Source: a phage
Reading direction: 5' to 3' (one strand)
DNA length: 40,153 nucleotides
Sequence record: OZ335957.1
In this document: in pieces, positions 1 to 39,707 of the stretch
Layout of the letters: each line of letters opens with the position of its first letter
Numbering within the stretch: position 1 is the first letter of the stretch
Notes under the pieces: generated by a model
What the model saw: only the letters and a program-made list of their open reading frames with translations
Told to the model about the DNA's origin: nothing
The model's database searches: none
Translations under genes and position numbers: made by a program

Positions 1-1764
1 TTGAGTAAAGATTTAGTGGCTCGTCAGGCGCTAATGACTGCCCGTATGAAGGCAGACTTCGTGTTCTTCCTGTTCGTCCTGTGGAAAGCTCTGTCACTAC
101 CAGTCCCGACTCGATGTCAGATTGACATGGCGAAGAAACTATCGGCTGGGGACAACAGGCGTTTCATCCTACAGGCGTTCCGTGGTATCGGGAAGTCATT
201 CATTACGTGCGCATTCGTGGTATGGAAACTGTGGAACAACCCAGACTTGAAGTTCATGATTGTGTCGGCCTCAAAGGAACGAGCCGATGCAAACTCCATC
301 TTCATCAAGCGAATCATCGACCTCATGCCTCAGCTTCGGGAACTCAAACCTAAGCAGGGGCAGCGAGATGCGGTTATCAGCTTCGACGTTGGACCAGCCA
401 AGCCAGACCACTCACCTTCGGTTAAGTCCGTTGGTATCACTGGTCAGTTGACTGGTAGTCGTGCTGACATCCTGATTGCCGATGACGTGGAGGTTCCGAA
501 CAACTCAGCGACTCAGGCTGCCCGAGACCGTCTGTCAGAGCTTGTGAAAGAGTTCGACGCTATCCTGAAGCCGGGAGGTACAATCATCTATCTGGGTACT
601 CCTCAGAACGAGATGACCTTGTATCGTGAGCTGGAAGGCCGTGGGTACACCACTACTATCTGGCCTGCTCGTTATCCACGCGACAGGAAGGACTGGCAGT
701 CTTACGGCGACCGTCTGGCTCCAATGCTTCAGGCAGAGCTTGAAGAGGACCCTGAGTCATTCTACTGGCGTCCGACTGATGAAGTACGCTTCGATGATAC
801 GGACCTTAAGGAACGTGAGCTGTCATATGGTAAGGCTGGCTTCGCTCTACAGTTCATGCTTAACCCGAACCTGAGTGATGCCGAGAAGTACCCACTGAAG
901 CTCCGTGACCTTATCGTAGCGGACTTGGACCCAGCGTCCAGCCCAATGGTCTACCAATGGTTACCGAACCCTCAGAACAAGCGTGAGGACGTTCCTAACG
1001 TTGGACTCATGGGTGACTCGTACCACACGTATCAGACTGTAGGTTCTGCCTTCAGCTCATACACCCAGAAGATTCTGGTCATTGACCCTAGTGGTCGTGG
1101 TAAGGATGAAACTGGCTATGCGGTACTGTATCAGCTTAATGGCTACATCTTCGCTATGGAAGTTGGTGGTATGCGTGGTGGTTATGAAGACTCTACGCTT
1201 GAAGCACTGGCTAAGATTGGTCGTAAGTGGAAGGTCAACGAATACGTCATTGAGGGTAACTTCGGTGATGGTATGTACCTTGAGCTATTCAAGCCTGTAG
1301 CGGCCCGTATCCATCCTGCGGCTGTAACTGAAGTGAAGAGTAAGGGTCAGAAAGAACTCCGCATCTGTGACGTTCTGGAGCCTATCATGGGATCTCACCG
1401 ACTTATCGTTAACGCTGCTGCTATCGTCCAAGACTACCAGTCGGCCTCTGATAAGGATGGTGTTCGTAACCCTATCTACTCTCTCTTCTACCAGATGACA
1501 CGTATCTCTCGTGAACGTGGAGCCTTGGCACACGATGACCGACTTGATGCGCTGGCTATCGGTGTACAGTTCTTCGTTGAGTCTATGGCTAAGGATGCCA
1601 ACAAGGGCGAACGTGAAGTAACTGAGGAGTGGCTGGAGGAGCAGATGGAGAACCCACGGAAAGGCTTCGAGTCCATCCACACTGAGTTCTGGGACAATGG
1701 GGTCCGGGTAACTCATAATACTGACGACGAGCTGGGACTAGGGTCCTACGTTACGTTCCACTAG
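1..1764 (+). CDS. 19: Terminase large subunit (T7 gp19-like), apparently full length with TTG as first codon at window position 1
   Basis: 587-aa ORF collinear with T7 gp19 (586 aa): [13 protein letters not shown], [60 protein letters not shown] motifs. Confidence 0.9.
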
Positions 1765-1858
1765 CTGAATGAATAACTATGGGTGAAAGCTGCATGAATA
1801 CGCAGTTAGTAACCTATAGTTACTACCAGTCTAACCTACTGTTTTACAAGGAGTTTGG

Positions 1859-1881
1859 ACTTAACTATCACTATAGGGAAG
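1859..1881 (+). promoter_or_regulatory. Phage single-subunit RNAP promoter (right-end, phiOR-like position), +1 G at 1876
   Basis: ACTTAACTATCACTATA GGGAAG; one of 10 copies of the CTATCACTATAGG core; lies between gene 19 and the terminal repeat. Confidence 0.75.
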
Positions 1882-2060
1882 ACCCCCGGTTACTTATAGT
1901 ATTACTGTAGTGAATATACATATGCAGACTTTATGCAAGACCTTAGGAGGCAGACTCCAAGTTCTTACCTAAGGCTTGCACCGATGGAAGGAGGTGATAT
2001 TAATCATAATACCTCCAATACAGATAGTCACAGACCATAGATACAGGAGGTATGTAGCAT

Positions 2061-2219
2061 ATGGCAAAGACCAAAGCTGTACTTAAAGCTCTGGCGACCA
2101 ATCGAGCTACATACAGGTTTCTTGCTGCTGTTCTACTTGCTGCTGGCGTTACTGCTGGAAGTCAGTGGGTCGGGTGGGTCGAGACTCTCATATGTTCTCT
2201 GGTGTCTGAGTGTCGTTAA
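2061..2219 (+). CDS. Small hydrophobic protein (52 aa) in the gene 19.5 position
   Basis: ATG 8 nt after AGGAGGT; one predicted TM-like segment (FLAAVLLAAGVTAG); position after terminase as in T7 gene 19.5. Confidence 0.35.
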   Translation: MAKTKAVLKALATNRATYRFLAAVLLAAGVTAGSQWVGWVETLICSLVSECR

Positions 2220-2453
2220 CTCCGTAATGGTAACAATCAACGAAAGGAGGTAGTATGGACGAAGAGTCTTACGGTTCGTTCTCTGAAGAGGACTATAAGA
2301 CGGAGTGGGAATACGCCCATTGAAGACCTAAGGTCAGTTCATAGCTGACGCTACTCTACTGACCTTAGCTACTGTAGTCAAGGACTTTAGGTAACACCTT
2401 AAGAGAAGCTCACTTAGGGTCATCCTACTTATTGGTCTATCCTAGTGTCGCCT

Positions 2454-2493
2454 GACCTACGGTCCTTGACCTACAGTGGCTGTGGCCTACAGT
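2454..2493 (+). repeat. Short direct repeats (GACCTACGG / GACCTACAGT / GGCCTACAGT) left of the terminal repeat
   Basis: Three related 9-10 bp copies within 40 bp, directly upstream of the presumed genome terminus. Confidence 0.5.
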
Positions 2494-2531
2494 AGTGACG
2501 ATGAGTTTTGGACCAAAAGTTTGAGACCACA

Positions 2532-2725
2532 TCTCACAGTTCAAGAACCTCAAGTCTCCCCATAGGCCCTCTTTAAGTCCAGACCAAAGGCCCTACCCAA
2601 GTCTATCATAAGGTTAGACCGATGGTCAAGACTTCAGGTCAACGATAGGTGGTGACTATGGCTTAGGGAAGGACGATAGGTGGTGACTATAGGTCTGTCT
2701 TTGAGTCTCTATCTGTATCAGACCT
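2532..2725 (+). repeat. Presumed terminal repeat (collapsed to one copy) beginning at the genome left terminus TCTCACAGT; right boundary approximate
   Basis: ATCTCACAGTTCAAGAACC...CCCCATAGGCCCTCTTTAAG matches the conserved left-end sequence of T7/T3 (TCTCA(C/T)AGT...); region is non-coding and flanked by short repeat arrays as in T7. Confidence 0.45.
2642..2690 (+). repeat. Perfect 18-bp direct repeat ACGATAGGTGGTGACTAT x2 (2642-2659 and 2673-2690)
   Basis: Exact duplication read directly from the sequence, 13-bp spacer. Confidence 0.85.
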
Positions 2726-2734
2726 TGAGTCACT

Positions 2735-2820
2735 AACTACAGTCTAACTACCTACAGTCTAACTACCTACAGTCATCGACCATCGGTAATGCTGATACCT
2801 ACAGTCTAAACCTACAGTTA
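2735..2820 (+). repeat. Array of CCTACAGT(C) short repeats including a tandem 15-bp unit TAACTACCTACAGTC x2
   Basis: Copies at 2737, 2751, 2766, 2798, 2811; analogous in position to the ACCTAAAG-type repeats right of the T7 terminal repeat. Confidence 0.6.
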
Positions 2821-3241
2821 ATAGACACAATGGCTATAGACTTAAGGTCTAAGACATGTTAGTCAAAGACTATATCCTCTTACACCATGGGGCCGACGAT
2901 AGCTTAATCAATATTATTTCAAATTACCTATTGACTATAGGTCCAGACTATGGCCTAATAGCTTCCGTCAACACGACACGGCAACAACCGGATAGTGAAG
3001 ACGCCGGTGTCATCCCGGTTAAGTAGACAGCCTGATAAGTCATACGAACAACAGGCAGATGACAATAAGGTAGTAAGGTCGCTGAGGGCTTCCACTTCAG
3101 CAGGTCGGAAAGGTCCTAAAACCTAACGAGAGTCTGACCAGCTCGCCAAGTCTGCCACTGAGGTGGATAACCAGAGGAGGCAACGTGTCGCCCACTGAGG
3201 GGCTACAGCTCACAGTTTAGGTTAACAGGCTAAACAAATGC

Positions 3242-3271
3242 TTGACAAGATGTAACGATAAGATGTAATAT
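3242..3271 (+). promoter_or_regulatory. Host sigma70-type early promoter (T7 A3-like)
   Basis: -35 TTGACA (3242-3247), 18-bp spacer, -10 TAATAT (3266-3271); flanking sequence resembles the T7 A2/A3 region (..TTGACAA..GTAA..; downstream GCTCTTTAACAATCTGG). Confidence 0.6.
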
Positions 3272-3449
3272 TTACCACATCGAAACAACGGTGATGACCA
3301 ACACTGAAATGGTCTACCTGAAGTCCTCTGACTGAAGGGAATGCTCTTTAACAATCTGGATAAACTCTTAATGTGCGCCGATAGCGACTAACTACAGGGC
3401 CTTTGAGCCTACATCTGAAGGCCCTGACTGATAGTCACTAACTTAACGG

Positions 3450-3704
3450 ATGGACACTATGAAACACTTAAGCACAATCACTAATCGCAATGAAGTATTC
3501 GTGAACACTAAAGGTTATGCGTGGATTCAGCTTAAAGAGATGAGAGGAGCGCGTCACCGTGTGGTAGTGCGCAAGGTATCAAGCAAGCAGTTCAGCAACT
3601 ACAGCGTCGATACTGTGCGTATAGACAACGAGACATACCTGATAGACTCGCAGATAACCGTGAGTACTACAGCGGGCGTCTCAGCTCCTTATTTCGCTAA
3701 CTGA
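3450..3704 (+). CDS. Hypothetical early protein (84 aa), first ORF after the early promoters
   Basis: ORF in early leader position; weak RBS; alternative start at 3459; no recognisable motif. Confidence 0.4.
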   Translation: MDTMKHLSTITNRNEVFVNTKGYAWIQLKEMRGARHRVVVRKVSSKQFSNYSVDTVRIDNETYLIDSQITVSTTAGVSAPYFAN

Positions 3705-3791
3705 GAGTGATTAACTACAGGTCGTTAGACTGATAGCGGCCTGACTGATAGTCACTAACATACACATAATTAACTTTGAGAGGATATAACT

Positions 3792-4295
3792 ATGGAACGT
3801 AATGCTAACGCATACTATGAGCTGCTGGCTGCAACAGTTGAGGCATTTATCGAGCGTATTCAGTACGACCACCTGACTAAAGATGATGACTACAGCGATG
3901 CGCTGCATGAGGTAGTAGACGGTCAGGTTCCACACTATTACCACGAGATTTTTACGGTGATGGCTGCTGATGGTATAGACCACGAGTTCGAAGACTCTGG
4001 GATGATGCCTGAAACCAAGGACGTAACGCGTATACTACAAGCTCGCATCTATGAGGCGCTTTATAACGATGTGTCTAATAGCTTGGATGTAGTCTGGTTT
4101 GAGGATGAAGAGGCAGACGAAGAGGATGAATATTGGGTAGTTGACGCTAAAACAGGCGCAATAATTGTGCAAGCTGTAGCTCTTGAGGTCGCTACTGCAT
4201 GTGCCAAGGTCAACTATGCAATAGGTCGCCACCTGAAGGTGGAAGACATCAATGATAACGTAGTGTTCGATCCTGCGGCTGAGGACTGCGAGTGA
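3792..4295 (+). CDS. ocr: Ocr-like anti-restriction protein (T7 gp0.3 DNA mimic) with about 50-aa C-terminal extension
   Basis: [43 protein letters not shown] closely matches T7 Ocr; acidic tract DEEADEEDE; RBS GAGAGG. Confidence 0.85.
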
Positions 4296-4444
4296 TGGTA
4301 ACTTATGGTATCTGCCAGCACCACGTCGCCAACGCCCGGCTTATGGTCAAGACCGGGCGGTTAACCCATGATGAGACTATGCGTCTCCTGAAGGTGGTCT
4401 ACAAGCGGCGCAAGCGTATTCACGACAGTTTGCACGCTGAGTGA
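4295..4444 (+). CDS. Hypothetical small early protein (49 aa)
   Basis: ATG overlaps Ocr stop (TGATG); basic C-terminus; below the ORF-track size cutoff. Confidence 0.3.
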   Translation: MVTYGICQHHVANARLMVKTGRLTHDETMRLLKVVYKRRKRIHDSLHAE

Positions 4445-4509
4445 TAAACGAGAGGTCACGACTGATAGGTGGCCTCAAAGATTATCACTTAAATTGATAG
4501 AGGTTAACT

Positions 4510-4599
4510 ATGAGTGTTGGACATTGGGTATGCTTATCTCCGGTCATCTTTCTGATAGCTTGGGGGATATACGACTGTATTAAACGGAAATCACTATGA
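4510..4599 (+). CDS. Hypothetical small hydrophobic peptide (29 aa)
   Basis: ATG after AGAGGT; stop overlaps next start (ATGA); hydrophobic core. Confidence 0.2.
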   Translation: MSVGHWVCLSPVIFLIAWGIYDCIKRKSL

Positions 4600-4793
4600 G
4601 TCTTGCACTATTGATAGCCATAGGCTATGGACTTATCGCATACGTGCTTGTGAGAGACATCAACAAAGCGCGTAAAGTCTACAAATTCAACTATGTACGT
4701 CTGGGCCGCTGGACTGTACGTCAACCTAACGGACGATTCATGCGCAACTTAGCGAACGTCTGGGATATAGCAACTATTGGGAGCAAACTGTAA
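4596..4793 (+). CDS. Hypothetical early membrane protein (65 aa)
   Basis: N-terminal hydrophobic helix LALLIAIGYGLIAYVLV; translationally coupled to flanking ORFs. Confidence 0.45.
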   Translation: MSLALLIAIGYGLIAYVLVRDINKARKVYKFNYVRLGRWTVRQPNGRFMRNLANVWDIATIGSKL

Positions 4794-5053
4794 TGAAAAC
4801 CGTATACATTAACAAACCATCTAGCCATAGCCGTGTAGAGCAAATAGAGCGTGACATGTTCTTACATCGCCGCATGAGGGCTGAGGGCCATAAGTACGAA
4901 CTGATGAGTCTGGCGTTTGGTGGACGACCGATCACTGACGATGGTAAACTTTTAGTCTCAGGCTGGAAGGCGATAGACCAACGGTCAACCATCAAGCACA
5001 CGACTCACGGTGACTTCAGCCATCTCCACGCTAACCCACTGATATGCAAGTGA
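4793..5053 (+). CDS. Hypothetical early protein (86 aa)
   Basis: TAATG coupling with upstream ORF; occupies the region where T7 carries gene 0.7, but far too small to be a kinase. Confidence 0.5.
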   Translation: MKTVYINKPSSHSRVEQIERDMFLHRRMRAEGHKYELMSLAFGGRPITDDGKLLVSGWKAIDQRSTIKHTTHGDFSHLHANPLICK

Positions 5054-5058
5054 TTATG

Positions 5059-5081
5059 ACTTAACTATCACTATAGGACTC
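5059..5081 (+). promoter_or_regulatory. Phage RNAP promoter immediately upstream of the RNAP gene, +1 G at 5076
   Basis: ACTTAACTATCACTATA GGACTC; 20-mer identical to the copy at 1859. Confidence 0.75.
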
Positions 5082-5150
5082 AAGGTCTAAGACTCCAAGT
5101 GAAAGACCAAAGAGACTTTAAGTGAAAGACTAATAACAAGGACTTTAAGT

Positions 5151-7832
5151 ATGAGCGTCATCTCTATTGATAAACACGACTTCTCTGATGTGTCTAACGC
5201 CATTGAGCCGTTTAACCTGCTGGCTGACCACTACGGGCAAGACCTTGCAGTCAAACAGCTTCAGCTTGAGCATGAGGCCTACACTGAAGGCGAGCGACGT
5301 TTCATCAAGAACCTTGAGCGTCAGACCGAGCGAGGGGAACTGGCAGACAATCAGGTCGCCAAGCCTTTGATGCAGACTCTGGTTCCTAAGATTGCGCAAG
5401 CCGTCAAGGAGTGGCACGAAGGTCCAGACGGGAAGCTGTCAACCTCACGTCCGAGCGTAGCGTTCACCATGTTAAGCACTGAAGAGAAGGCCGTCAAGGA
5501 CCGCTCTCTTCGCATCTCCTGCGAGTCTGCTGCGGTTATCATACTGAAGGTCATCCTCTCCAAGCTGGTCAAGCCTGAAGGTATACCGATTACACCGATG
5601 GCCTCCGCGATAGGTCGCACACTTGAGGATGAAATCCGATTCGGTCGCATTCGTGACAAGGAGAAGGAGCACTTCAAGAAGGCGATAGCTGATAACCTGA
5701 ACAAGAGAGCCGGGGCATCATACAAGAAAGCCTACATGCAAGCGGTCGAGACATCCATGCTGGAGCAAGGCCAACTAGAAGATGCGTGGGGAACTTGGAG
5801 TCCGACCGAGGCTGTCCACGTTGGAATCAAGATGCTGGAGATTGTCATACAGTCAACACAACTGGTCGAGCTTAAGCGTTACGGTGCTGGCAATGCAACG
5901 GCTGACGTTGAGATGGTCCACCTGTCAGACTTCTGGGTCAAGAAGATGGCACAACGCGGCTTCAGCCTTGCGGGTATCGCTCCAGTCTACCAACCTTGCG
6001 TAGTTCCACCTAAGCCGTGGACTGGTGTCGTAGGCGGTGGGTACTGGGCCAAAGGTCGCAGACCATTACCACTGATTCGCTTAGGGTCTAAGTCTGCGGT
6101 GGCACGTTACGAAGACGTGTATATGCCTGAAGTCTATGACGCTGTTAACATCATCCAGAATACACCTTGGAAAGTGAACAAGAAGGTTCTGGACGTGGTG
6201 AACATGGTCGAGAAGTTGAACAACACGCCTATTGATGACATCCCTCAGATGGAGCCACTGAAGCCTGAAGAATATGCGGGTGAGACTGAAGAGGAACTCA
6301 AGGCGTGGAAGAAAGCGGCTGCTGGTATCTATCGCCGCGAGAAGGCCAGACAGTCACGCAGATTGTCGCTGAGCTTTATCGTTAACCAAGCGAACAAGTT
6401 CTCTCAGTTCAAGGCCATCTGGTTCCCGTACAACATGGACTGGCGCGGTCGCGTCTACGCTGTGCCGATGTTCAACCCTCAGGGTAACGACATGCAAAAG
6501 GGTCTACTGACTCTGGCAGTCGGTAAGCCTATTGGTGCTGATGGTTTCAAATGGCTGAAGGTCCACGGTGCAAACTGTGCGGGTGTCGATAAAGTCACCT
6601 TCGAGGAGCGCATCAAGTGGGTGGAAGACAACCACGACAACATCATGGCTGCTGCTAAGGCACCGATGGATAGCATTGAGTGGTGGGGCAAGTTAGACTC
6701 TCCTTTCTGCTTCCTTGCGTTCTGCTTCGAGTATGCTGGCGTGATGCACCACGGATTGTCTTACTCCTGCTCGCTGCCGATAGCTTTCGATGGGTCCTGC
6801 TCTGGGATTCAGCACTTCAGCGCTATGCTTCGTGACCACATCGGTGGACATGCAGTAAACCTGACGCCTTCCGGTAAGGTCCAAGACATCTACCGCATCG
6901 TTTCTGACCGCATTGAGGAAGAGCTTAAAGTCCTGCTGGTTAACGGCACGGACAACGAGATGGTAACTCACGAGGACAAGAAAACTGGTGAGATTACCGA
7001 GCGTCTCAAGCTGGGGACACGAGAGCTGGCCCGTCAGTGGCTGACCTACGGTATGTCACGCAAGGTTACTAAGCGCTCAGTCATGACTCTGGCCTACGGG
7101 TCGAAAGAGTACGGCTTCGCAGACCAAGTTTACGAGGACATCGTGATGCCCGCGATTGACTCAGGGTCTGGCGCTATGTTCACTGAACCAAGCCAAGCAT
7201 CTCGCTTCATGGCTAAGATGATTTGGGAAGCTGTGAGTGTGACCGTAGTTGCTGCGGTTGACGCGATGAAATGGCTTCAGGGTGCTGCCAAGCTGCTGGC
7301 GGCTGAAGTGAAGGACAAGAAGACTGGCGAAATCCTGAAGCCTTGCCTTCCGGTACACTGGGTCACACCTGATGGGTTCCCGGTCTGGCAGGAATACCGC
7401 AAGAAGGATACCACTCGTCTGAATCTGATGTTCTTAGGGTCATTCAACCTTCAGCCTACCGTCAACAAAGGCACGAAGAAAGAGCTGGATAAGCACAAGC
7501 AGGAGTCAGGCATTAGCCCGAACTTCGTCCACTCACAAGATGGTAGCCACCTCCGCAAGACTGTAGTCCACACGCATCGCAAGTATGGCGTGATGTCATT
7601 CGCAGTGATTCATGATAGCTTCGGGACAATCCCGGCTGACGCTGAATATCTGTTCCGTGGTGTCCGTGAGACGATGGTCGAGACCTACCGCGACAACGAT
7701 GTGCTGCTTGACTTCTACGAGCAGTTTGAATACCAGCTTCACGAGAGCCAGCGCAATAAGTTGCCAGAGCTTCCGAAGAAAGGTAAACTGAATATCGAAG
7801 ACATCTTGTCTTCAGACTTTGCATTCGCTTAA
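5151..7832 (+). CDS. 1: Single-subunit DNA-directed RNA polymerase (T7 gp1-like)
   Basis: 893 aa; collinear with T7 RNAP: PFNLLADHYG, CVVPPKPWTG, WFPYNMDWRGRVYAV, FCFLAFCFEY, IHDSFGT, C-terminal FAFA. Confidence 0.98.
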   Translation: MSVISIDKHDFSDVSNAIEPFNLLADHYGQDLAVKQLQLEHEAYTEGERRFIKNLERQTERGELADNQVAKPLMQTLVPKIAQAVKEWHEGPDGKLSTSRPSVAFTMLSTEEKAVKDRSLRISCESAAVIILKVILSKLVKPEGIPITPMASAIGRTLEDEIRFGRIRDKEKEHFKKAIADNLNKRAGASYKKAYMQAVETSMLEQGQLEDAWGTWSPTEAVHVGIKMLEIVIQSTQLVELKRYGAGNATADVEMVHLSDFWVKKMAQRGFSLAGIAPVYQPCVVPPKPWTGVVGGGYWAKGRRPLPLIRLGSKSAVARYEDVYMPEVYDAVNIIQNTPWKVNKKVLDVVNMVEKLNNTPIDDIPQMEPLKPEEYAGETEEELKAWKKAAAGIYRREKARQSRRLSLSFIVNQANKFSQFKAIWFPYNMDWRGRVYAVPMFNPQGNDMQKGLLTLAVGKPIGADGFKWLKVHGANCAGVDKVTFEERIKWVEDNHDNIMAAAKAPMDSIEWWGKLDSPFCFLAFCFEYAGVMHHGLSYSCSLPIAFDGSCSGIQHFSAMLRDHIGGHAVNLTPSGKVQDIYRIVSDRIEEELKVLLVNGTDNEMVTHEDKKTGEITERLKLGTRELARQWLTYGMSRKVTKRSVMTLAYGSKEYGFADQVYEDIVMPAIDSGSGAMFTEPSQASRFMAKMIWEAVSVTVVAAVDAMKWLQGAAKLLAAEVKDKKTGEILKPCLPVHWVTPDGFPVWQEYRKKDTTRLNLMFLGSFNLQPTVNKGTKKELDKHKQESGISPNFVHSQDGSHLRKTVVHTHRKYGVMSFAVIHDSFGTIPADAEYLFRGVRETMVETYRDNDVLLDFYEQFEYQLHESQRNKLPELPKKGKLNIEDILSSDFAFA

Positions 7833-7846
7833 CAGGAGAGAGAGCT

Positions 7847-8062
7847 ATGAAATATGCACACAAGCATACTGGCGTTAATGGTGGGACTCAAATCGTGACC
7901 GTAACAGAACACAACGGCAAGGGTCTGGTGAAGACCACGGTCATCCCTACCGAGATGTCCAAGCAGCTTAACATCCCGTTCAAGACTCTTGTAGATCTGG
8001 TCGAGTCCAGCCACGAGAAGTACCTGAAGGACGCAGTGTCAAAACTGGAGCAGACCAAATGA
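7847..8062 (+). CDS. Hypothetical protein (71 aa) between RNAP gene and downstream promoter
   Basis: RBS AGGAGAGAGAG; no recognised motif. Confidence 0.5.
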   Translation: MKYAHKHTGVNGGTQIVTVTEHNGKGLVKTTVIPTEMSKQLNIPFKTLVDLVESSHEKYLKDAVSKLEQTK

Positions 8063-8136
8063 CAGACCTACAGTTGCTGGCCTTGTGGCTGGGAGCAATT
8101 GCAGTATTCACTTTAATCCAACGCAGAAGAGGTTAA
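8059..8136 (+). CDS. Hypothetical small hydrophobic peptide (25 aa)
   Basis: ATG overlapping upstream stop; LLALWLGAIAVFTLI helix; stop abuts promoter. Confidence 0.2.
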   Translation: MTDLQLLALWLGAIAVFTLIQRRRG

Positions 8137-8159
8137 CCTAAACTATCACTATAGGATTA
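8137..8159 (+). promoter_or_regulatory. Phage RNAP promoter (phi1.1-like position), +1 G at 8154
   Basis: CCTAAACTATCACTATA GGATTA. Confidence 0.8.
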
Positions 8160-8200
8160 GACTCAAGGTCATGACTCAAAGTCGTGGCCTTCATGATTAA
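8158..8200 (+). promoter_or_regulatory. Conserved hairpin element, copy 1 (RNase III site-like, R1.1 position)
   Basis: TAGACTCAAGGTCAT..GTGGCCTTCATGATTA; stem AAGGTCA/TGGCCTT conserved in three copies (8158, 15524, 39611). Confidence 0.4.
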
Positions 8201-8232
8201 CCCTAAATAAACACTACTGGAGATTTAACCGT

Positions 8233-8412
8233 ATGTATCAGAATACTATCAACTTCGAGCGCATCCGTGAACGTCAGCAGACTGAAGGTTACATTCCTAA
8301 GGGCCGCAAGCTGAACAAGACTAAACGTGGAGGCGGCATCAAAGGTGCTTTCCGTAACGCTGAAGGTAAAGACTCTATGGTCAACCAAGAGAAATACTTC
8401 GTAGGAGCATAA
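8233..8412 (+). CDS. 1.1: gp1.1-like small basic protein (59 aa)
   Basis: KGRKLNKTKR motif as in T7 gp1.1; GGAG RBS. Confidence 0.6.
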   Translation: MYQNTINFERIRERQQTEGYIPKGRKLNKTKRGGGIKGAFRNAEGKDSMVNQEKYFVGA

Positions 8413-8416
8413 CTCT

Positions 8417-8680
8417 ATGGGCCGACTTTATAGTGGCAACCTCAACGCTTTCAGAGCAGCGTGTAACAGGCTTTATCAGTTAGACTTCGCTGTTATATCT
8501 CAGGAGTTTCAAGACCATGTGTCACACCAAGAGTGCATGAAACTCAGGGTGGAGGACAGAACTGGTAACATCTTCGCGCTTGAGTCCTTCGCACACTACG
8601 ATGACGACGTGCTGTATAATACTGCAACCGACTACCTCAACGGTCTCGCTGACCAACTAGACACATGGAGCAAAGCATAA
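8417..8680 (+). CDS. 1.2: gp1.2-like protein (host dGTPase inhibitor in T7)
   Basis: MGRLYSGNLNAFRAACNRLYQLDFAVI...LRVEDRTGN matches T7 gp1.2 N-terminus. Confidence 0.85.
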   Translation: MGRLYSGNLNAFRAACNRLYQLDFAVISQEFQDHVSHQECMKLRVEDRTGNIFALESFAHYDDDVLYNTATDYLNGLADQLDTWSKA

Positions 8681-9720
8681 TGACAACTATCAAAACTAAC
8701 CCGCACCGCGCTGTAGATTACTCTGAGTCTGGCATTAAGAAGGCACTGGAAGCAGCCGGGTCTCTGGAAGCTGAAGTGAAGTACGATGGTGTCCGGCTGA
8801 ACCTTCCGGTGCTGCGAGAAGGTGAGACATACTGGTTAAGCCGTGAGTCTAAACCGCTGCCAGCACTGGAGTGGATGAACTCTGAGTTAGGGAATGCGTG
8901 GACTCAAGCTGACTGGCGATGGTTCCTGCGTCAAGCTGGATACGAAGGCGTGGGACTGATGATTGACGGAGAGGTAATGGTCAAAGGCGTTGACTTCAAC
9001 ACATCATCGGGTCTCATCCGAACGAAGTGGCTGAAGCCTAGCAACGAGGAGTTCGCTGAATGCTATCCGGGACGTGGCAAGAAGGTCCCGTTCTGGGTCG
9101 CCCGGTCACGACTCAAGGTTGTGGTCTACGGTGTCGTCGACATGACGACCATAGCCGACCCGAAAGCAGAAGGTCCTATCCATAGCGTCACACGCCTGAA
9201 GGCCGAAGCTATCGTACCTCTCCTCCAGAAATACTTCCCGGAAATCGACTGGGTTCTGTCTGAGTCACACACGGTCTATGACCTTGAGTCGCTCAACTCC
9301 CTGTACGAACAGAAGCGTCTGGAAGGACATGAGGGTCTGGTGGTCAAGGACCCACTTGGAAAATACAAGCGCGGCAAGAAGTCAGGCATGTGGAAAATGA
9401 AGCCTGAGGAGACAATTGACGGGACCGTGTGTGGACTCGTGTGGGGGACTCCGGGTAAGGCTAACGAAGGTAAGATCATCGGCTTTGAGGTTCTACTGGA
9501 AGATGGCATGGTGGTTAACGCCTGTGGTCTGACTGAGAAGCAGAAGGACGAGTTCACGGAAGCCTGTAACACTGACACATATATCCTTGGTGGTGTCAAT
9601 CCTTACGAGGGCTGGCAGGTTGAAGTCCTCTACATGGAGCGATTCCCTGACGGCTCACTGCGTCACCCTAGCTTCAAGTGCTGGCGCGGGACGGAAGATA
9701 ACCCGACCATTAAGAGCTAA
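8680..9720 (+). CDS. 1.3: ATP-dependent DNA ligase (T7 gp1.3-like); alternative upstream start at 8665
   Basis: MTTIKTNP N-terminus as in T7 ligase; adenylation motif KYDGVR; TAATG coupling at 8680. Confidence 0.92.
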   Translation: MTTIKTNPHRAVDYSESGIKKALEAAGSLEAEVKYDGVRLNLPVLREGETYWLSRESKPLPALEWMNSELGNAWTQADWRWFLRQAGYEGVGLMIDGEVMVKGVDFNTSSGLIRTKWLKPSNEEFAECYPGRGKKVPFWVARSRLKVVVYGVVDMTTIADPKAEGPIHSVTRLKAEAIVPLLQKYFPEIDWVLSESHTVYDLESLNSLYEQKRLEGHEGLVVKDPLGKYKRGKKSGMWKMKPEETIDGTVCGLVWGTPGKANEGKIIGFEVLLEDGMVVNACGLTEKQKDEFTEACNTDTYILGGVNPYEGWQVEVLYMERFPDGSLRHPSFKCWRGTEDNPTIKS

Positions 9721-9731
9721 CTAAATGTCAA

Positions 9732-9768
9732 CCCAGTGGTCTTAGGACTGCTGGGTTTCTTTGCTTTG
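9732..9768 (+). terminator. Intrinsic terminator after ligase gene (T7 TE-like position)
   Basis: 10-bp stem CCCAGTGGTC/GACTGCTGGG (two G-U pairs), loop TTAG, followed by TTTCTTTGCTTTG. Confidence 0.5.
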
Positions 9769-9803
9769 TGCTAGCAAGCTATCGTCTGGGCCACCAGCTC
9801 GAC

Positions 9804-9826
9804 CCTAAGCTATCACTATAGGACAA
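9804..9826 (+). promoter_or_regulatory. Phage RNAP promoter, +1 G at 9821
   Basis: CCTAAGCTATCACTATA GGACAA. Confidence 0.75.
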
Positions 9827-9850
9827 CCATCAACAACCTAAGGAGACTCT

Positions 9851-10111
9851 ATGTCTAAGAACTTAATGTTCAACCGCTATACCAATACATTCCACCTGTC
9901 CAACAACCCGTTCGCTTACATTAAGCGCAACGAGAAGCTGGGCTACTTCGGGAAGGCTGTTAAGTTATCACCTACAGTATTCGCTCTGATTACTCCGGGA
10001 AAAGCTGAAGAGGCTCGCCAAAAGCGTGAGACCAACGTACCTGTGGTCTACACTAAATGGCCTCGCGTTCGTCTGTTTGTTGAGTTCGTGAAGGAGGTGA
10101 TCAATGGTTAA
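9851..10111 (+). CDS. Hypothetical protein (86 aa), gene 1.6 position
   Basis: RBS AAGGAG; position and size only. Confidence 0.55.
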   Translation: MSKNLMFNRYTNTFHLSNNPFAYIKRNEKLGYFGKAVKLSPTVFALITPGKAEEARQKRETNVPVVYTKWPRVRLFVEFVKEVING

Positions 10112-10544
10112 GGTGGGGGATACAGTTGAATATGTTGGACCAGTTGAAGCCTACACGGGACGCTCCTGTGGCAAGGTGATAGTGGTTAAGAATGAGCATG
10201 TAGCTGTTGTTAAGTGGCCCGGTTTATCTGAACCACTCAGTCACTCCATTAGCTCCTTAAGTATTACCAATCAGGCTCAGTCCGAGCCGACAACCATAGA
10301 TCAGGGAGATAGCGTCCGTAAGCCGTCGTACTATCAGGTCTTTGACGGTGTGGAATCCATTGAGATTATCGCCAGGTCCATGACTGTCAGTGAGTTCCGT
10401 GGTTTCTGCATGGGTAACGTCCTGAAGTATCGACTCCGAGCTGGTAAGAAGTCCGAGCTGGCGACTATGGAGAAGGACATGGCGAAAGCTGAGTTCTATG
10501 GTGAACTTTACGAGAAACATAAGGACAAGTGTTATGACGCGTGA
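10104..10544 (+). CDS. Hypothetical protein (146 aa), gene 1.7 position; possibly DUF3310-type
   Basis: Position; C-terminal SYYQVF..IEII..MTVSEFRGFCMGNVLKYRLRAGKK pattern is tentatively recalled as DUF3310-like. Confidence 0.55.
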   Translation: MVKVGDTVEYVGPVEAYTGRSCGKVIVVKNEHVAVVKWPGLSEPLSHSISSLSITNQAQSEPTTIDQGDSVRKPSYYQVFDGVESIEIIARSMTVSEFRGFCMGNVLKYRLRAGKKSELATMEKDMAKAEFYGELYEKHKDKCYDA

Positions 10545-10761: not shown

Positions 10762-10848
10762 ACCGAGTGAGTGGTGCCGGGAGATGTACGAGAAGACTCT
10801 CAACCCGGACTACATTACGTTATACAACCAATGGAAGGAGCGTGGTCT

Positions 10849-11007
10849 ATGACTGACGTAGAAAAGAAATACATCGTGGAGCTTGAGGGTCGCGTTCAGT
10901 CATTCGAGGTTCCGGTGTACGCAAAGTCTCTTGAAGAGGCTACCCTGAAGTCCCAAGAGTATGAGGACGCTGGGTTTGTGGTCGGACGGATTCGTCCTGA
11001 GACCTAA
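10849..11007 (+). CDS. 2: gp2-like inhibitor of host RNA polymerase (52 aa)
   Basis: [14 protein letters not shown]...[10 protein letters not shown] matches T7 gp2 (SFEVPIYAETLDEA...GFEVTRVRP); AGGAG RBS; internal start of ORF-track 10771 frame. Confidence 0.75.
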
Positions 11008-15523: not shown

Positions 15524-15566
15524 TAGACTCAAGGTCATTCATAGCGAGTGGCCTTTATGATTAGAC
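15524..15566 (+). promoter_or_regulatory. Conserved hairpin element, copy 2 (RNase III site-like, R4.7 position)
   Basis: TAGACTCAAGGTCATTCATAGCGAGTGGCCTTTATGATTAGACT. Confidence 0.4.
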
Positions 15567-28476: not shown

Positions 28477-28499
28477 CCTTAACTATCACTATAGGGACT
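28477..28499 (+). promoter_or_regulatory. Phage RNAP promoter (phi13-like), +1 G at 28494, bracketed by an 11-bp perfect inverted repeat
   Basis: CCTTAACTATCACTATA GGGACT; AGGGCCTATAG (28461-28471) / CTATAGGCCCT (28497-28507). Confidence 0.8.
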
Positions 28500-28528
28500 A
28501 TAGGCCCTTAAGGTTATAAGGAGACTTT

Positions 28529-39346: not shown

Positions 39347-39606
39347 CGCAGATGGACTTAGAGAAGTTCCTCTTGATGCTAGATACTGAACGTGCTCGAC
39401 TCATGCTGCAAGACCTGCGGGATGACACTAAGCGTTCACCTCAGCTTTACAACGCCATTGAGAAGCTACTGGCTCGTCACAACTTCGTGCTAAGCAAGGT
39501 GTCTGTAGACGAGAAGACTCTGGCTGATATGGAGGCCCTGAACGCAGAGTACGATAAGGTTCTTTCAGCGACTGAGGATAATGACACAGGGTATGGTGTT
39601 CAATAA
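39343..39606 (+). CDS. 18: Terminase small subunit (T7 gp18-like)
   Basis: 87 aa; LLMLDTERARLMLQDL...RSPQLYNAIEKLLARH matches T7 gp18. Confidence 0.88.
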   Translation: MTQMDLEKFLLMLDTERARLMLQDLRDDTKRSPQLYNAIEKLLARHNFVLSKVSVDEKTLADMEALNAEYDKVLSATEDNDTGYGVQ

Positions 39607-39610
39607 GTGT

Positions 39611-39655
39611 TAGACTCAAGGTCATTACTATATGTAGTGGCCTTTATGGTTAACA
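39611..39655 (+). promoter_or_regulatory. Conserved hairpin element, copy 3 (RNase III site-like, R18.5 position)
   Basis: TAGACTCAAGGTCATTACTATATGTAGTGGCCTTTATGGTTAAC. Confidence 0.4.
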
Positions 39656-39707
39656 CTAACTAGTGGAGGAGACTCTACGTGAAATCTGATAAACCGGGAG
39701 GGCAACT

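Follow-up and report, generated by a model that had tools for sequence, protein, structure and literature searches.

The early region of a K1F-like coliphage: a T7-type layout without the gene 0.7 kinase, with a diverged Gp0.4-family protein and RNase III-type hairpins at a variable slot

The window analysed here, the whole stretch of 40,153 nucleotides (OZ335957.1), is the genome of a K1F-like (Kayfunavirus) coliphage, with 97.8% identity to Escherichia phage 216Ecol046PP and 93% to K1F, and the block at 3792-5150 holds its ordinary early genes. We regard it as very probable that this is the class I block of such a phage, in the layout of T7 minus an optional kinase cassette. A broader and more tentative proposal, to which we give a little under an even chance, joins two points. 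The 49-aa protein gp0.35 may be the means by which K1F-like phages inhibit FtsZ, as a variant of Gp0.4 with an invariant His in place of a critical Trp; and the repeated RNase III-type hairpins may act as recombination boundaries at which related phages gain and lose early genes one at a time, the anti-defence kinase among them.

Between the stop codon of the ocr gene and the start of the RNA polymerase gene lie 855 bp, where a sequence-only reading of this DNA had given about 850 bp. As that reading had described, the only ORFs they carry are four small ones on the plus strand, of 49, 29, 65 and 86 aa. No frame of the interval holds a longer ORF than the last of these, and none is thus large enough to be the roughly 360-aa kinase of T7, as had also been noted. 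The further description of the small ORFs as coupled applies to the junctions that overlap, namely ocr with the 49-aa ORF (1 nt, TGATG), the 29-aa with the 65-aa ORF (4 nt, ATGA) and the 65-aa with the 86-aa ORF (1 nt, TAATG); the 49-aa and 29-aa ORFs, on the other hand, are uncoupled, with 65 nt between them that fold as a strong hairpin (z = -4.1). Each of the four is a conserved gene; they occur in about 95-225 deposited phage genomes, and K1F records name the early block gp0.35-0.38, the ORFs of 49, 65 and 86 aa being gp0.35, gp0.37 and gp0.38. An Rfam search of window 1700-10200 matched no family. The features are as follows.

3383..3440, plus strand: predicted RNase III-type processing hairpin, 5' of an 84-aa gene 0.2-like ORF (HMM E 9e-7; z = -3.8; repeat families D6 and D8)
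3705..3757, plus strand: RNase III-type hairpin 5' of ocr, analogue of R0.3 (HMM E 5.8e-12; -23.9 kcal/mol, z = -3.7)
3792..4295, plus strand: ocr-like anti-restriction gene (gene 0.3), 167 aa (Pfam ocr E 1.3e-29, residues 8-94; phrog_2568 E 1.8e-53)
4295..4444 (from ATG), plus strand: 49-aa ORF, K1F gp0.35, diverged Gp0.4-family protein and candidate FtsZ inhibitor (profile match, position, residues)
4438..4490, plus strand: RNase III-type hairpin, analogue of R0.5, at the variable cassette slot (HMM E 5.5e-12; -21.4 kcal/mol, z = -4.1)
4510..4599, plus strand: 29-aa hydrophobic micro-ORF with a KRK tail, at the position of T7 gene 0.5 (conservation, codon bias, ribosome-binding site)
4596..4793, plus strand: 65-aa predicted single-pass membrane protein, K1F gp0.37, homologue of T3 gp0.6 (BLASTP, phrog_2385)
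4774-5001, minus strand: 75-aa ORF, antisense to the 86-aa gene
4793..5053, plus strand: 86-aa gp0.38-family protein, helical and basic (phrog_7066 E 1.5e-40)
5058..5080, plus strand: phage-RNAP promoter consensus immediately 5' of gene 1, fitting the consensus of the window's other CACTATAGG sites
5151..7832, plus strand: gene 1, single-subunit RNA polymerase, 893 aa (ORF; RNA polymerase annotation in all relatives)
9730..9757, plus strand: intrinsic terminator 3' of the ligase gene, TE analogue that closes the early unit (T run after a 12-bp stem; position as T7 TE)
10771..11007, plus strand: candidate gp2-like inhibitor of host RNA polymerase (phrog_1307 E 1.8e-24)

The closest described counterpart of this arrangement is in K1F (AM084414 / DQ111067), which has genes 0.3, 0.35, 0.37, 0.38 and 1 in the same order and likewise no gene 0.7, with gp0.35, gp0.37 and gp0.38 being 90%, 98% and 84-88% identical to those of the window. 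K1F differs in an unrelated 55-aa hydrophobic gp0.36 in place of the 29-aa ORF, which we read as a cassette swap because the flanks are nearly identical. The absence of gene 0.7 has already been published for CR44b, and a kinase-less early region, rather than being a peculiarity of the present genome, is what members of the K1F lineage usually have; being already documented for that lineage, it constitutes no discovery in itself. The class I region of T7 reads 0.3, 0.4, R0.5, 0.5, 0.6, 0.7, R1, 1, and its order recurs in the window: ocr is followed by a gene of the 0.4 family whose start overlaps the ocr stop by 1 nt, and then come an RNase III-type hairpin, a gene for a small hydrophobic peptide, another small gene and gene 1. 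A terminator 3' of the ligase gene is likewise common to both. Unlike T7, however, the window lacks the 0.7 kinase and the R1 hairpin (before gene 1 the fold is not significant, z = -1.0, and there is no HMM match), it encodes an Ocr of 167 rather than 117 aa, its 29-aa and 65-aa ORFs are without sequence similarity to T7 0.5 and 0.6, and a phage promoter precedes gene 1 where T7 has the E. coli promoter C. The sequence of this phage promoter is identical in K1F, and the annotations of CR44b and CR8 list it as a predicted promoter.

The small ORFs had been called unrecognised, which is right only in part and does not hold for those of 49 and 65 aa, a Gp0.4-family protein and a T3 gp0.6 homologue, respectively. 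The sequence-only reading had itself named clear homologues of known T7 class I genes as evidence against it, and through these two homologies such evidence is thus present for two of the four ORFs. Its observation of two membrane-like N-termini is borne out by the 29-aa and 65-aa ORFs, with maximal Kyte-Doolittle hydropathies (15-residue window) of 2.13 and 2.49. The 29-aa ORF, although often unannotated, is intact in 94 of the 95 phage records matched by tblastn, at 65-100% amino-acid identity; it is preceded at 7 nt by a GAGG ribosome-binding site, and its substitutions relative to EP1 number 7, 5 and 15 by codon position, a third-position bias. Compared with T7 gp0.5 (phrog_16572), it gave no PHROG match and a best BLAST alignment of 9 residues (E 36), and it is an analogue of that protein in position and physicochemistry only. 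The 65-aa ORF is 41% identical to T3 gp0.6 (BLASTP E 2e-10; phrog_2385 E 5e-32) and 82% identical to CR8 gp0.71, with 28 synonymous and 11 nonsynonymous codon changes, and others have annotated a transmembrane helix in proteins of this type in CR8 and Pipis. T3 gp0.6 (NP_523298) is likewise a protein of 65 aa with an N-terminal hydrophobic helix, encoded just 3' of R0.5; in length, predicted N-terminal transmembrane helix and similarity, the 65-aa ORF thus has the attributes of the T3 gene 0.6 family. In T3 this gene is followed by 0.65 and the kinase, whereas in the window gp0.38 follows.

Much the same genes stand before gene 1 in relatives. EP1 (an Enterobacter phage, Kayfunavirus) shares the 29-aa ORF with the window and also has a gp0.6-like gene of 64 aa and one like gp0.38; CR8 (a Citrobacter phage, Caroctavirus) has the gp0.6-like 0.71, 0.38 and the promoter, with an unrelated 34-aa hydrophobic ORF (0.705) at the position of the micro-ORF; and in IMM-002 (an Escherichia phage, Kayfunavirus) an endonuclease VII gene separates a gp0.6-like gene from a gp0.38 match. 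EP1 and IMM-002 carry a SAM hydrolase where the window has ocr. The gp0.38 gene itself is found in 224 phage records, and in K1F, CR44b, CR8 and EP1 too it lies immediately 5' of gene 1 with the promoter between; its family has only 13 representatives among 1.84 billion proteins. An initial AlphaFold2 model had a pLDDT of 47, which a broader alignment raised to 78.7, with helices at residues 11-31, 34-41 and 49-71. Foldseek searches of this model against PDB and BFVD returned family members only, and neither a PDB profile search nor comparisons with Pfam, NCBIfam and PADLOC found anything. As far as sequence and model indicate, gp0.38 is a small, lineage-restricted helical protein without detectable relatives.

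Similarity searches indicate, in agreement with the earlier reading, that the gene 0.7 kinase is absent from the window, be it whole, split or frameshifted. T7 gp0.7, searched by tblastn against the whole window in all frames, gave a best E of 0.73, outside the region in question, and the kinases of T3, EP1, CR8 and IMM-002 gave a best E of 0.53; none of the five queries had a six-frame tblastn match in 4295-5150, whereas on kinase-bearing loci, taken as positive controls, the same queries reach 1e-31 to 1e-173. The gp0.7 family (T7K; PHROG 2828 and related) is characterized by a kinase domain (GFKKEDSGAAY box, DPV motif) and by an ORF of at least ~240 aa between genes 0.3 and 1, and the window offers no kinase match and interval ORFs of at most 86 aa. 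A frameshifted or split kinase reconstructable from the small ORFs, which the earlier reading had named as a finding that would speak against it, was looked for by tblastn and hhalign and not found. That a degraded, split or frameshifted kinase gene lies hidden within the four ORFs is extremely improbable: the sole point for it is that they occupy the position of T7 gene 0.7, and it faces not only the negative searches and their positive controls but also the fact that all four ORFs are intact, belong to conserved families of their own and show substitution patterns of the coding type, as well as an hhalign probability of 0.14% for gp0.38 against an 8-member gp0.7 alignment. We thus reject it, at the sensitivity of tblastn and hhalign.

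It is improbable too, if less extremely so, that gp0.38 is a non-homologous functional stand-in for gp0.7. It might then be, for instance, an independent module for host shutoff or DNA binding, comparable to the C-terminal domain of T7 gp0.7. The kinases of Kayfunavirus phages and CR8, of 242-244 aa, are without a shutoff domain, so that a separate shutoff module is conceivable, and a basic (pI 9.7), helical protein encoded directly 5' of gene 1 would suit the part. However, gp0.38 occurs together with a kinase in CR8, EP1, IMM-002 and B1 and is thus no replacement for the kinase domain; furthermore, it has no profile similarity to full-length gp0.7, shutoff domain included, and its model has no structural match to any DNA-binding protein (Foldseek, PDB and BFVD). 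As a detached gp0.7 shutoff domain it is rejected at sequence level by the same hhalign comparison. A resemblance of gp0.38 to the 'SGDF' of T7 was also discarded, the motif not being conserved among other gp0.7 proteins. Depletion of Ser/Thr/Tyr as a footprint of the kinase fared no better: the content is 0.128 in T7 early proteins and 0.151 in the window, and it is uninformative within the genus because kinase-bearing EP1, at 0.150, is close to the window.

The kinase-bearing relatives carry the kinase at a slot marked by hairpins. Those at 3383, 3705 and 4438 match the R-site consensus of the T7 group and are predicted processing sites; the annotated R0.3 and R0.5 sites of T3 align with hairpin 3705-3757, and T3 R0.5 aligns with 4438-4490. 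The hairpin HMM, trained without T7, has five matches in the T7 early region (854-901, 1428-1478, 3102-3149, 5848-5894 and 6418-6451 of locus L003). These, which the T7 record does not annotate, we take to be the RNase III sites R0.3, R0.5, R1, R1.1 and R1.3 (Dunn and Studier 1983). Homology with PM129, 01KA, Mt1B1_P3 and ASO2B breaks at window 4436-4449; PM129 and Mt1B1_P3 have other cassettes in the slot, and 01KA has extra slot ORFs that are not each bracketed by hairpins. CR8, EP1 and IMM-002 differ from the window in a gp0.7 homologue of 242-244 aa, consisting of the kinase domain only, directly 5' of the shared genes, with a hairpin at either end.

CR8: kinase 1875-2603; hairpins 1806-1856 and 2598-2649
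IMM-002: kinase 1725-2459; hairpins 1654-1704 and 2454-2504
EP1: kinase 1700-2434; hairpins 1627-1678 and 2429-2479

This two-hairpin cassette sits in the same slot as the single hairpin 4438-4490 of the window. The kinase is polymorphic in the group, being present in some Kayfunavirus phages (EP1, IMM-002) and in CR8; counted at >=60% identity to the EP1 kinase, the Kayfunavirus-type kinase is found in roughly 44 records, as against about 224 for gp0.38. We propose that the kinase is a dispensable single-gene cassette between two RNase III-type hairpins, which recombination between the repeated hairpins would add or remove, and that it is absent from the window for this reason. Host RNA polymerase would make one long early RNA, ending at the terminator 3' of the ligase gene, and the hairpins would let this RNA be cut into units, in the order hairpin, ocr (a restriction/BREX decoy), 49-aa Gp0.4-family gene, hairpin, coupled trio of 29, 65 and 86 aa, promoter and gene 1. 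Translation of the 49-aa protein would start via the 1-nt stop/start overlap with ocr.

The 49-aa ORF (50 aa if started at GTG 4292) can be assigned, on profile evidence, to the family of T7 Gp0.4, the FtsZ inhibitor, as a diverged member. Alignments of the K1F type and the T7 type match in hhalign with a probability of 90% (E 1.5e-6), and PHROG cross-matches between the two subfamilies are reciprocal (9e-5, 4.6e-3 and 0.09), the first being that of T7 Gp0.4 to phrog_5058, the PHROG of the 49-aa ORF. Pfam PF26807 (precomputed annotation) is common to both, and the sequences P0111 and P0097 bridge them, with identity between the subfamilies at about 31-33% over ~40 residues. The TGATG overlap with gene 0.3, at 4293-4297, is the same in T7 at 1278, and hairpin 4438-4490 then follows. 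In T7 Gp0.4, alanine substitution at V15, V22, W28, M32, L35 and Y39 each abolishes toxicity, and both W28L and W28A abolish activity (PMC13423816). Five of these six residues are identical in the 49-aa ORF (V11, V18, M29, L32 and Y36, for T7 V15, V22, M32, L35 and Y39), and W28 is replaced by H25, a His that is invariant across the K1F-type subfamily, as are L32 and Y36.

Most probably the 49-aa protein acts like T7 Gp0.4, binding FtsZ and so blocking division, which would explain the mislocalisation of FtsZ reported for K1F. Infection by that phage gives multi-ring filaments with mislocalised FtsZ, and the published study, in which K1F is without gene 0.4, ascribes this to an unknown peptide (PMC9372555); the 49-aa ORF is a direct candidate. 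The exchange of W28 for an invariant His means that FtsZ binding may be altered or lost, and together with an identity to T7 Gp0.4 of only ~33% it would fit a protein that is a Gp0.4 homologue by descent with a changed target, the FtsZ effect of K1F then coming from another early protein. We consider this unlikely, though a more serious contender than those weighed above for the kinase, since the other five tested contact residues are retained, two of them invariant, position and translational coupling to ocr are as in T7, the phenotype seen in K1F is Gp0.4-like, and none of the region's other candidates looks like a known inhibitor of division. If the protein does act on FtsZ, as we favour, the change from Trp to His may alter its engagement of FtsZ, or its recognition by defences that sense Gp0.4-FtsZ, such as CapRel(Ebc).

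The T7 kinase is now seen as a broad anti-defence weapon, and here it appears, within a single genus, as a cassette between hairpins, present in some phages and absent from others, so that kinase-plus and kinase-minus congeners form a natural comparison set for its cost and benefit. Furthermore, K1F-like phages are used in therapy and engineering, and correct annotation of their early genes is therefore of practical value. Shutoff of host transcription would still be possible in a phage of this constitution via gp2, the candidate gp2-like protein at 10771..11007 being one that can provide such a route without the kinase.

Our comparisons show that the interval between ocr and the RNA polymerase gene is correctly described as lacking a gene 0.7 protein kinase and that it corresponds to the early region already known as typical of K1F-like phages. 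The window (40,153 bp) covers the complete genome of a T7-like podophage in circularly permuted form, starts within the terminase large-subunit gene and carries all of its genes on the plus strand. Over 3400-5200, identity is 97.8% with Escherichia phage 216Ecol046PP, 97.5% with phage Pipis and 93% with K1F, and all close relatives are classified as Kayfunavirus (Studiervirinae). Three Kayfunavirus genomes that are near-identical to coliphages in this region (PV615262, MT350292 and OR786095) are recorded with Acinetobacter, Enterococcus and Staphylococcus as hosts, probably reflecting wrong host labels or contaminated isolates.

Features of the early region and related elements elsewhere in the window
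3383-3440, hairpin, RNase III-site profile (HMM) match
3705-3757, hairpin, HMM match
3792-4295, plus strand, ocr (Pfam ocr, E 1.3e-29)
4295-4444, plus strand, 49-aa ORF with ATG start (phrog_5058, 6.9e-25)
4438-4490, hairpin, HMM match
4510-4599, plus strand, 29-aa ORF
4596-4793, plus strand, 65-aa ORF, T3 gp0.6 homologue
4793-5053, plus strand, 86-aa ORF, K1F gp0.38 family (phrog_7066)
5058-5080, phage promoter directly upstream of gene 1, agrees in full with the consensus of phage RNA-polymerase promoters, cttaactatCACTATAGGa
5151-7832, plus strand, RNA polymerase gene (gene 1)
8157-8204, hairpin, HMM match
9730-9757, terminator 3' of the ligase gene
15524-15563, hairpin, HMM match
39606-39658, hairpin, HMM match

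The gap measures 855 bp and holds four plus-strand ORFs, the same ones (49, 29, 65 and 86 aa) that the sequence-only reading had placed in about 850 bp. Its description of them as coupled holds for the three junctions at which stop and start overlap (TGATG, ATGA and TAATG) but not for the 49-aa and 29-aa pair, which is separated by a 65-nt spacer that folds into a strong hairpin (-21.4 kcal/mol, z = -4.1). The two membrane-like N-termini it reported correspond to hydrophobic stretches in the 29-aa and 65-aa products, and other annotators predict a single transmembrane helix in homologues of the latter. The Ocr-like protein upstream has 167 aa versus 117 aa in T7; its Pfam ocr domain spans residues 8-94 only, so that about 70 further residues, with an acidic run among them, form a C-terminal extension.

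Six-frame tblastn of the window with T7 gp0.7 gave a best E of 0.73, with no match inside the region, and the T3 kinase together with the short EP1, CR8 and IMM-002 kinases reached only 0.53, whereas the same queries reach 1e-31 to 1e-173 on kinase-bearing loci. A hidden, split or frameshifted kinase among the small ORFs is thus excluded at that sensitivity. Both K1F records carry gp0.35-0.38 alone between genes 0.3 and 1, no kinase is annotated in this interval in any of the 30 best relatives, and the CR44b genome paper states outright that a gene 0.7 homologue is absent (PMC4038870). Judged from these comparisons, the lack of the kinase is the normal, already known state of the K1F lineage. 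A gp2-type host RNA polymerase inhibitor gene lies at 10771-11007, so that host shutoff can proceed without gp0.7. Depletion of Ser, Thr and Tyr has been reported for kinase-encoding Autographiviridae; the fraction of these residues in early proteins is 0.128 in T7, 0.151 in the window and 0.150 in its kinase-bearing congener EP1, and the depletion is thus not evident in either Kayfunavirus genome.

The ORFs had also been called unrecognised, which is partly wrong, since for two of the four there are clear homologues among T7/T3 class I genes. The 49-aa ORF is a member of the family of Gp0.4, the T7 FtsZ inhibitor. It scores 6.9e-25 against phrog_5058 and weakly against phrog_25044 (4.6e-3) and phrog_7202 (0.09), while T7 Gp0.4 scores 4.6e-33 against phrog_7202, 9e-7 against phrog_25044 and 9e-5 against phrog_5058; direct alignment gives 33% identity over the full peptide. 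In hhalign, the K1F type and the T7 type, aligned independently from 21 and 16 sequences, match with a probability of 90% (E 1.5e-6, 39 columns), and intermediates such as P0111 and P0097 exist. Searching a database with a mixed alignment retrieved both subfamilies, every member of which has the precomputed Pfam assignment PF26807. Furthermore, the setting is shared with T7, where the start likewise overlaps the gene 0.3 stop by one base and an RNase III-type hairpin follows, and the annotators of CR44b had already called its version '0.4'.

K1F infection yields multi-ring filaments, as T7 does, and the same study reported from BLAST that K1F 'lacks the 0.4 genes' and called its inhibitor unknown (Dhanoa et al., PMC9372555). 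The 49-aa ORF, 90% identical to K1F gp0.35, is an obvious and testable candidate for that inhibitor and may be expected to bind FtsZ. In T7 Gp0.4, V15A, V22A, W28A, M32A, L35A and Y39A each abolish toxicity alone, and W28L and L35P lose FtsZ binding (2026 study, PMC13423816). In the hhalign register, the window protein has V11, V18, H25, M29, L32 and Y36 at these positions; five of six are identical, and L32 and Y36 do not vary across the K1F-type alignment. The Trp, on the other hand, is replaced by an invariant His across the K1F-type subfamily, which is a real caveat for the predicted FtsZ binding, and because of this change it is possible that the homologue has switched target.

The 65-aa ORF matches T3 gp0.6 (41% identity, E 2e-10), as the Pipis record notes too, and is 82% identical to CR8 gp0.71; the codon changes relative to the latter (28 synonymous, 11 nonsynonymous) imply strong purifying selection. 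No family in PHROGs, Pfam or NCBIfam covers the 29-aa ORF, which is often left unannotated (for example, in EP1, Mt1B1_P3, Dev2 and ZG49). Even so, 94 of the 95 phage records that match it, with listed hosts from several enterobacterial genera, have it intact at 65-100% amino-acid identity, with substitutions skewed toward the third codon position. T7 gp0.5 is its positional and physicochemical analogue, with no detectable homology, and in K1F an unrelated 55-aa hydrophobic gene takes its place between nearly identical flanks. The gp0.38 family is confined to this phage group (224 phage records), and a set of 1.84 billion proteins yields only 13 representatives. AlphaFold2 with a widened alignment predicts a confident helical core (pLDDT 78.7; helices 11-31, 34-41 and 49-71), and fold and sequence searches match nothing outside the family. 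Its C-terminal half (…DDGKLL…HTTxGDFSHL…) is almost invariant, while the N-terminal half (4793-4920) varies in length, homologues with extensions reaching 108-139 aa, and among close relatives has an excess of nonsynonymous over synonymous changes; against K1F, the whole gene has 10 and 3, respectively. That gp0.38 is a detached gp0.7 shutoff domain is unsupported (hhalign probability 0.14% against an eight-member gp0.7 alignment) and is also disfavoured by its co-occurrence with the kinase.

The kinase is polymorphic in this group. Citrobacter phage CR8, of the sister genus Caroctavirus, has 0.3, 0.31, 0.4, a 242-aa kinase, a 34-aa hydrophobic ORF, a 64-aa gp0.6-like gene, 0.38, a promoter and gene 1, and the Kayfunavirus phages EP1, IMM-002 and B1 carry a 243-244-aa kinase at the same position. 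That of EP1 shares 32% identity with the T7 kinase domain (E 1e-33) and keeps the DPV motif but has no shutoff domain. About 44 phage records hold a kinase at least 60% identical to it versus about 224 with gp0.38, several accessions being common to both among the entries listed, so the kinase-less state appears commoner in this group. An RNase III-type hairpin lies on each side of the kinase gene in CR8, IMM-002 and EP1, and the window has a single hairpin at the corresponding slot. Homology to PM129, 01KA, Mt1B1_P3 and ASO2B stops at 4441-4449 and restarts at 4436-4437, the hairpin edge, around inserts of other sequence of about 280-490 bp, bracketed by hairpins in PM129 and Mt1B1_P3 but not in 01KA. 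The simplest reading, we infer, is that recombination between repeated hairpins would swap or delete early accessory genes, the kinase included, which could usefully be viewed as an optional, hairpin-bounded cassette. In Mt1B1_P3 (1379-1726) and ASO2B (1879-2226), a 115-aa ORF occupies the slot that follows the Gp0.4-like gene, and its N-terminus resembles a helix-turn-helix of transposase or regulator type.

The six listed hairpins form a related family, of which the first three align with R0.3, R0.5 and R1.1, RNase III sites annotated in T3. The HMM, trained on these three together with CR8, PM129 and T3 hairpins and on no T7 sequence, matches the T7 early region at 854-901, 1428-1478, 3102-3149, 5848-5894 and 6418-6451, which we take to be R0.3, R0.5, R1, R1.1 and R1.3 from the site positions of Dunn and Studier 1983. 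These T7 matches support reading the window hairpins as putative RNase III-type processing sites. The HMM found no R1 analogue before gene 1 of the window; in T7 and T3 this place is taken by E. coli promoter C and R1, whereas the window has the phage promoter and no detectable R1-type hairpin. K1F has an identical promoter at this position, and CR44b and CR8 are annotated with a predicted one; its location just 5' of the polymerase gene implies self-amplifying gene 1 transcription. The left-end promoter region (1826-1877) and the gp0.38 end plus gene 1 promoter (5026-5077) share a 52-nt direct repeat (79% identity), the similarity running about 30 nt past the promoter itself, and a tandem pair of overlapping promoter cores lies at 28487-28504 (CACTATAGGGACTATAGG).
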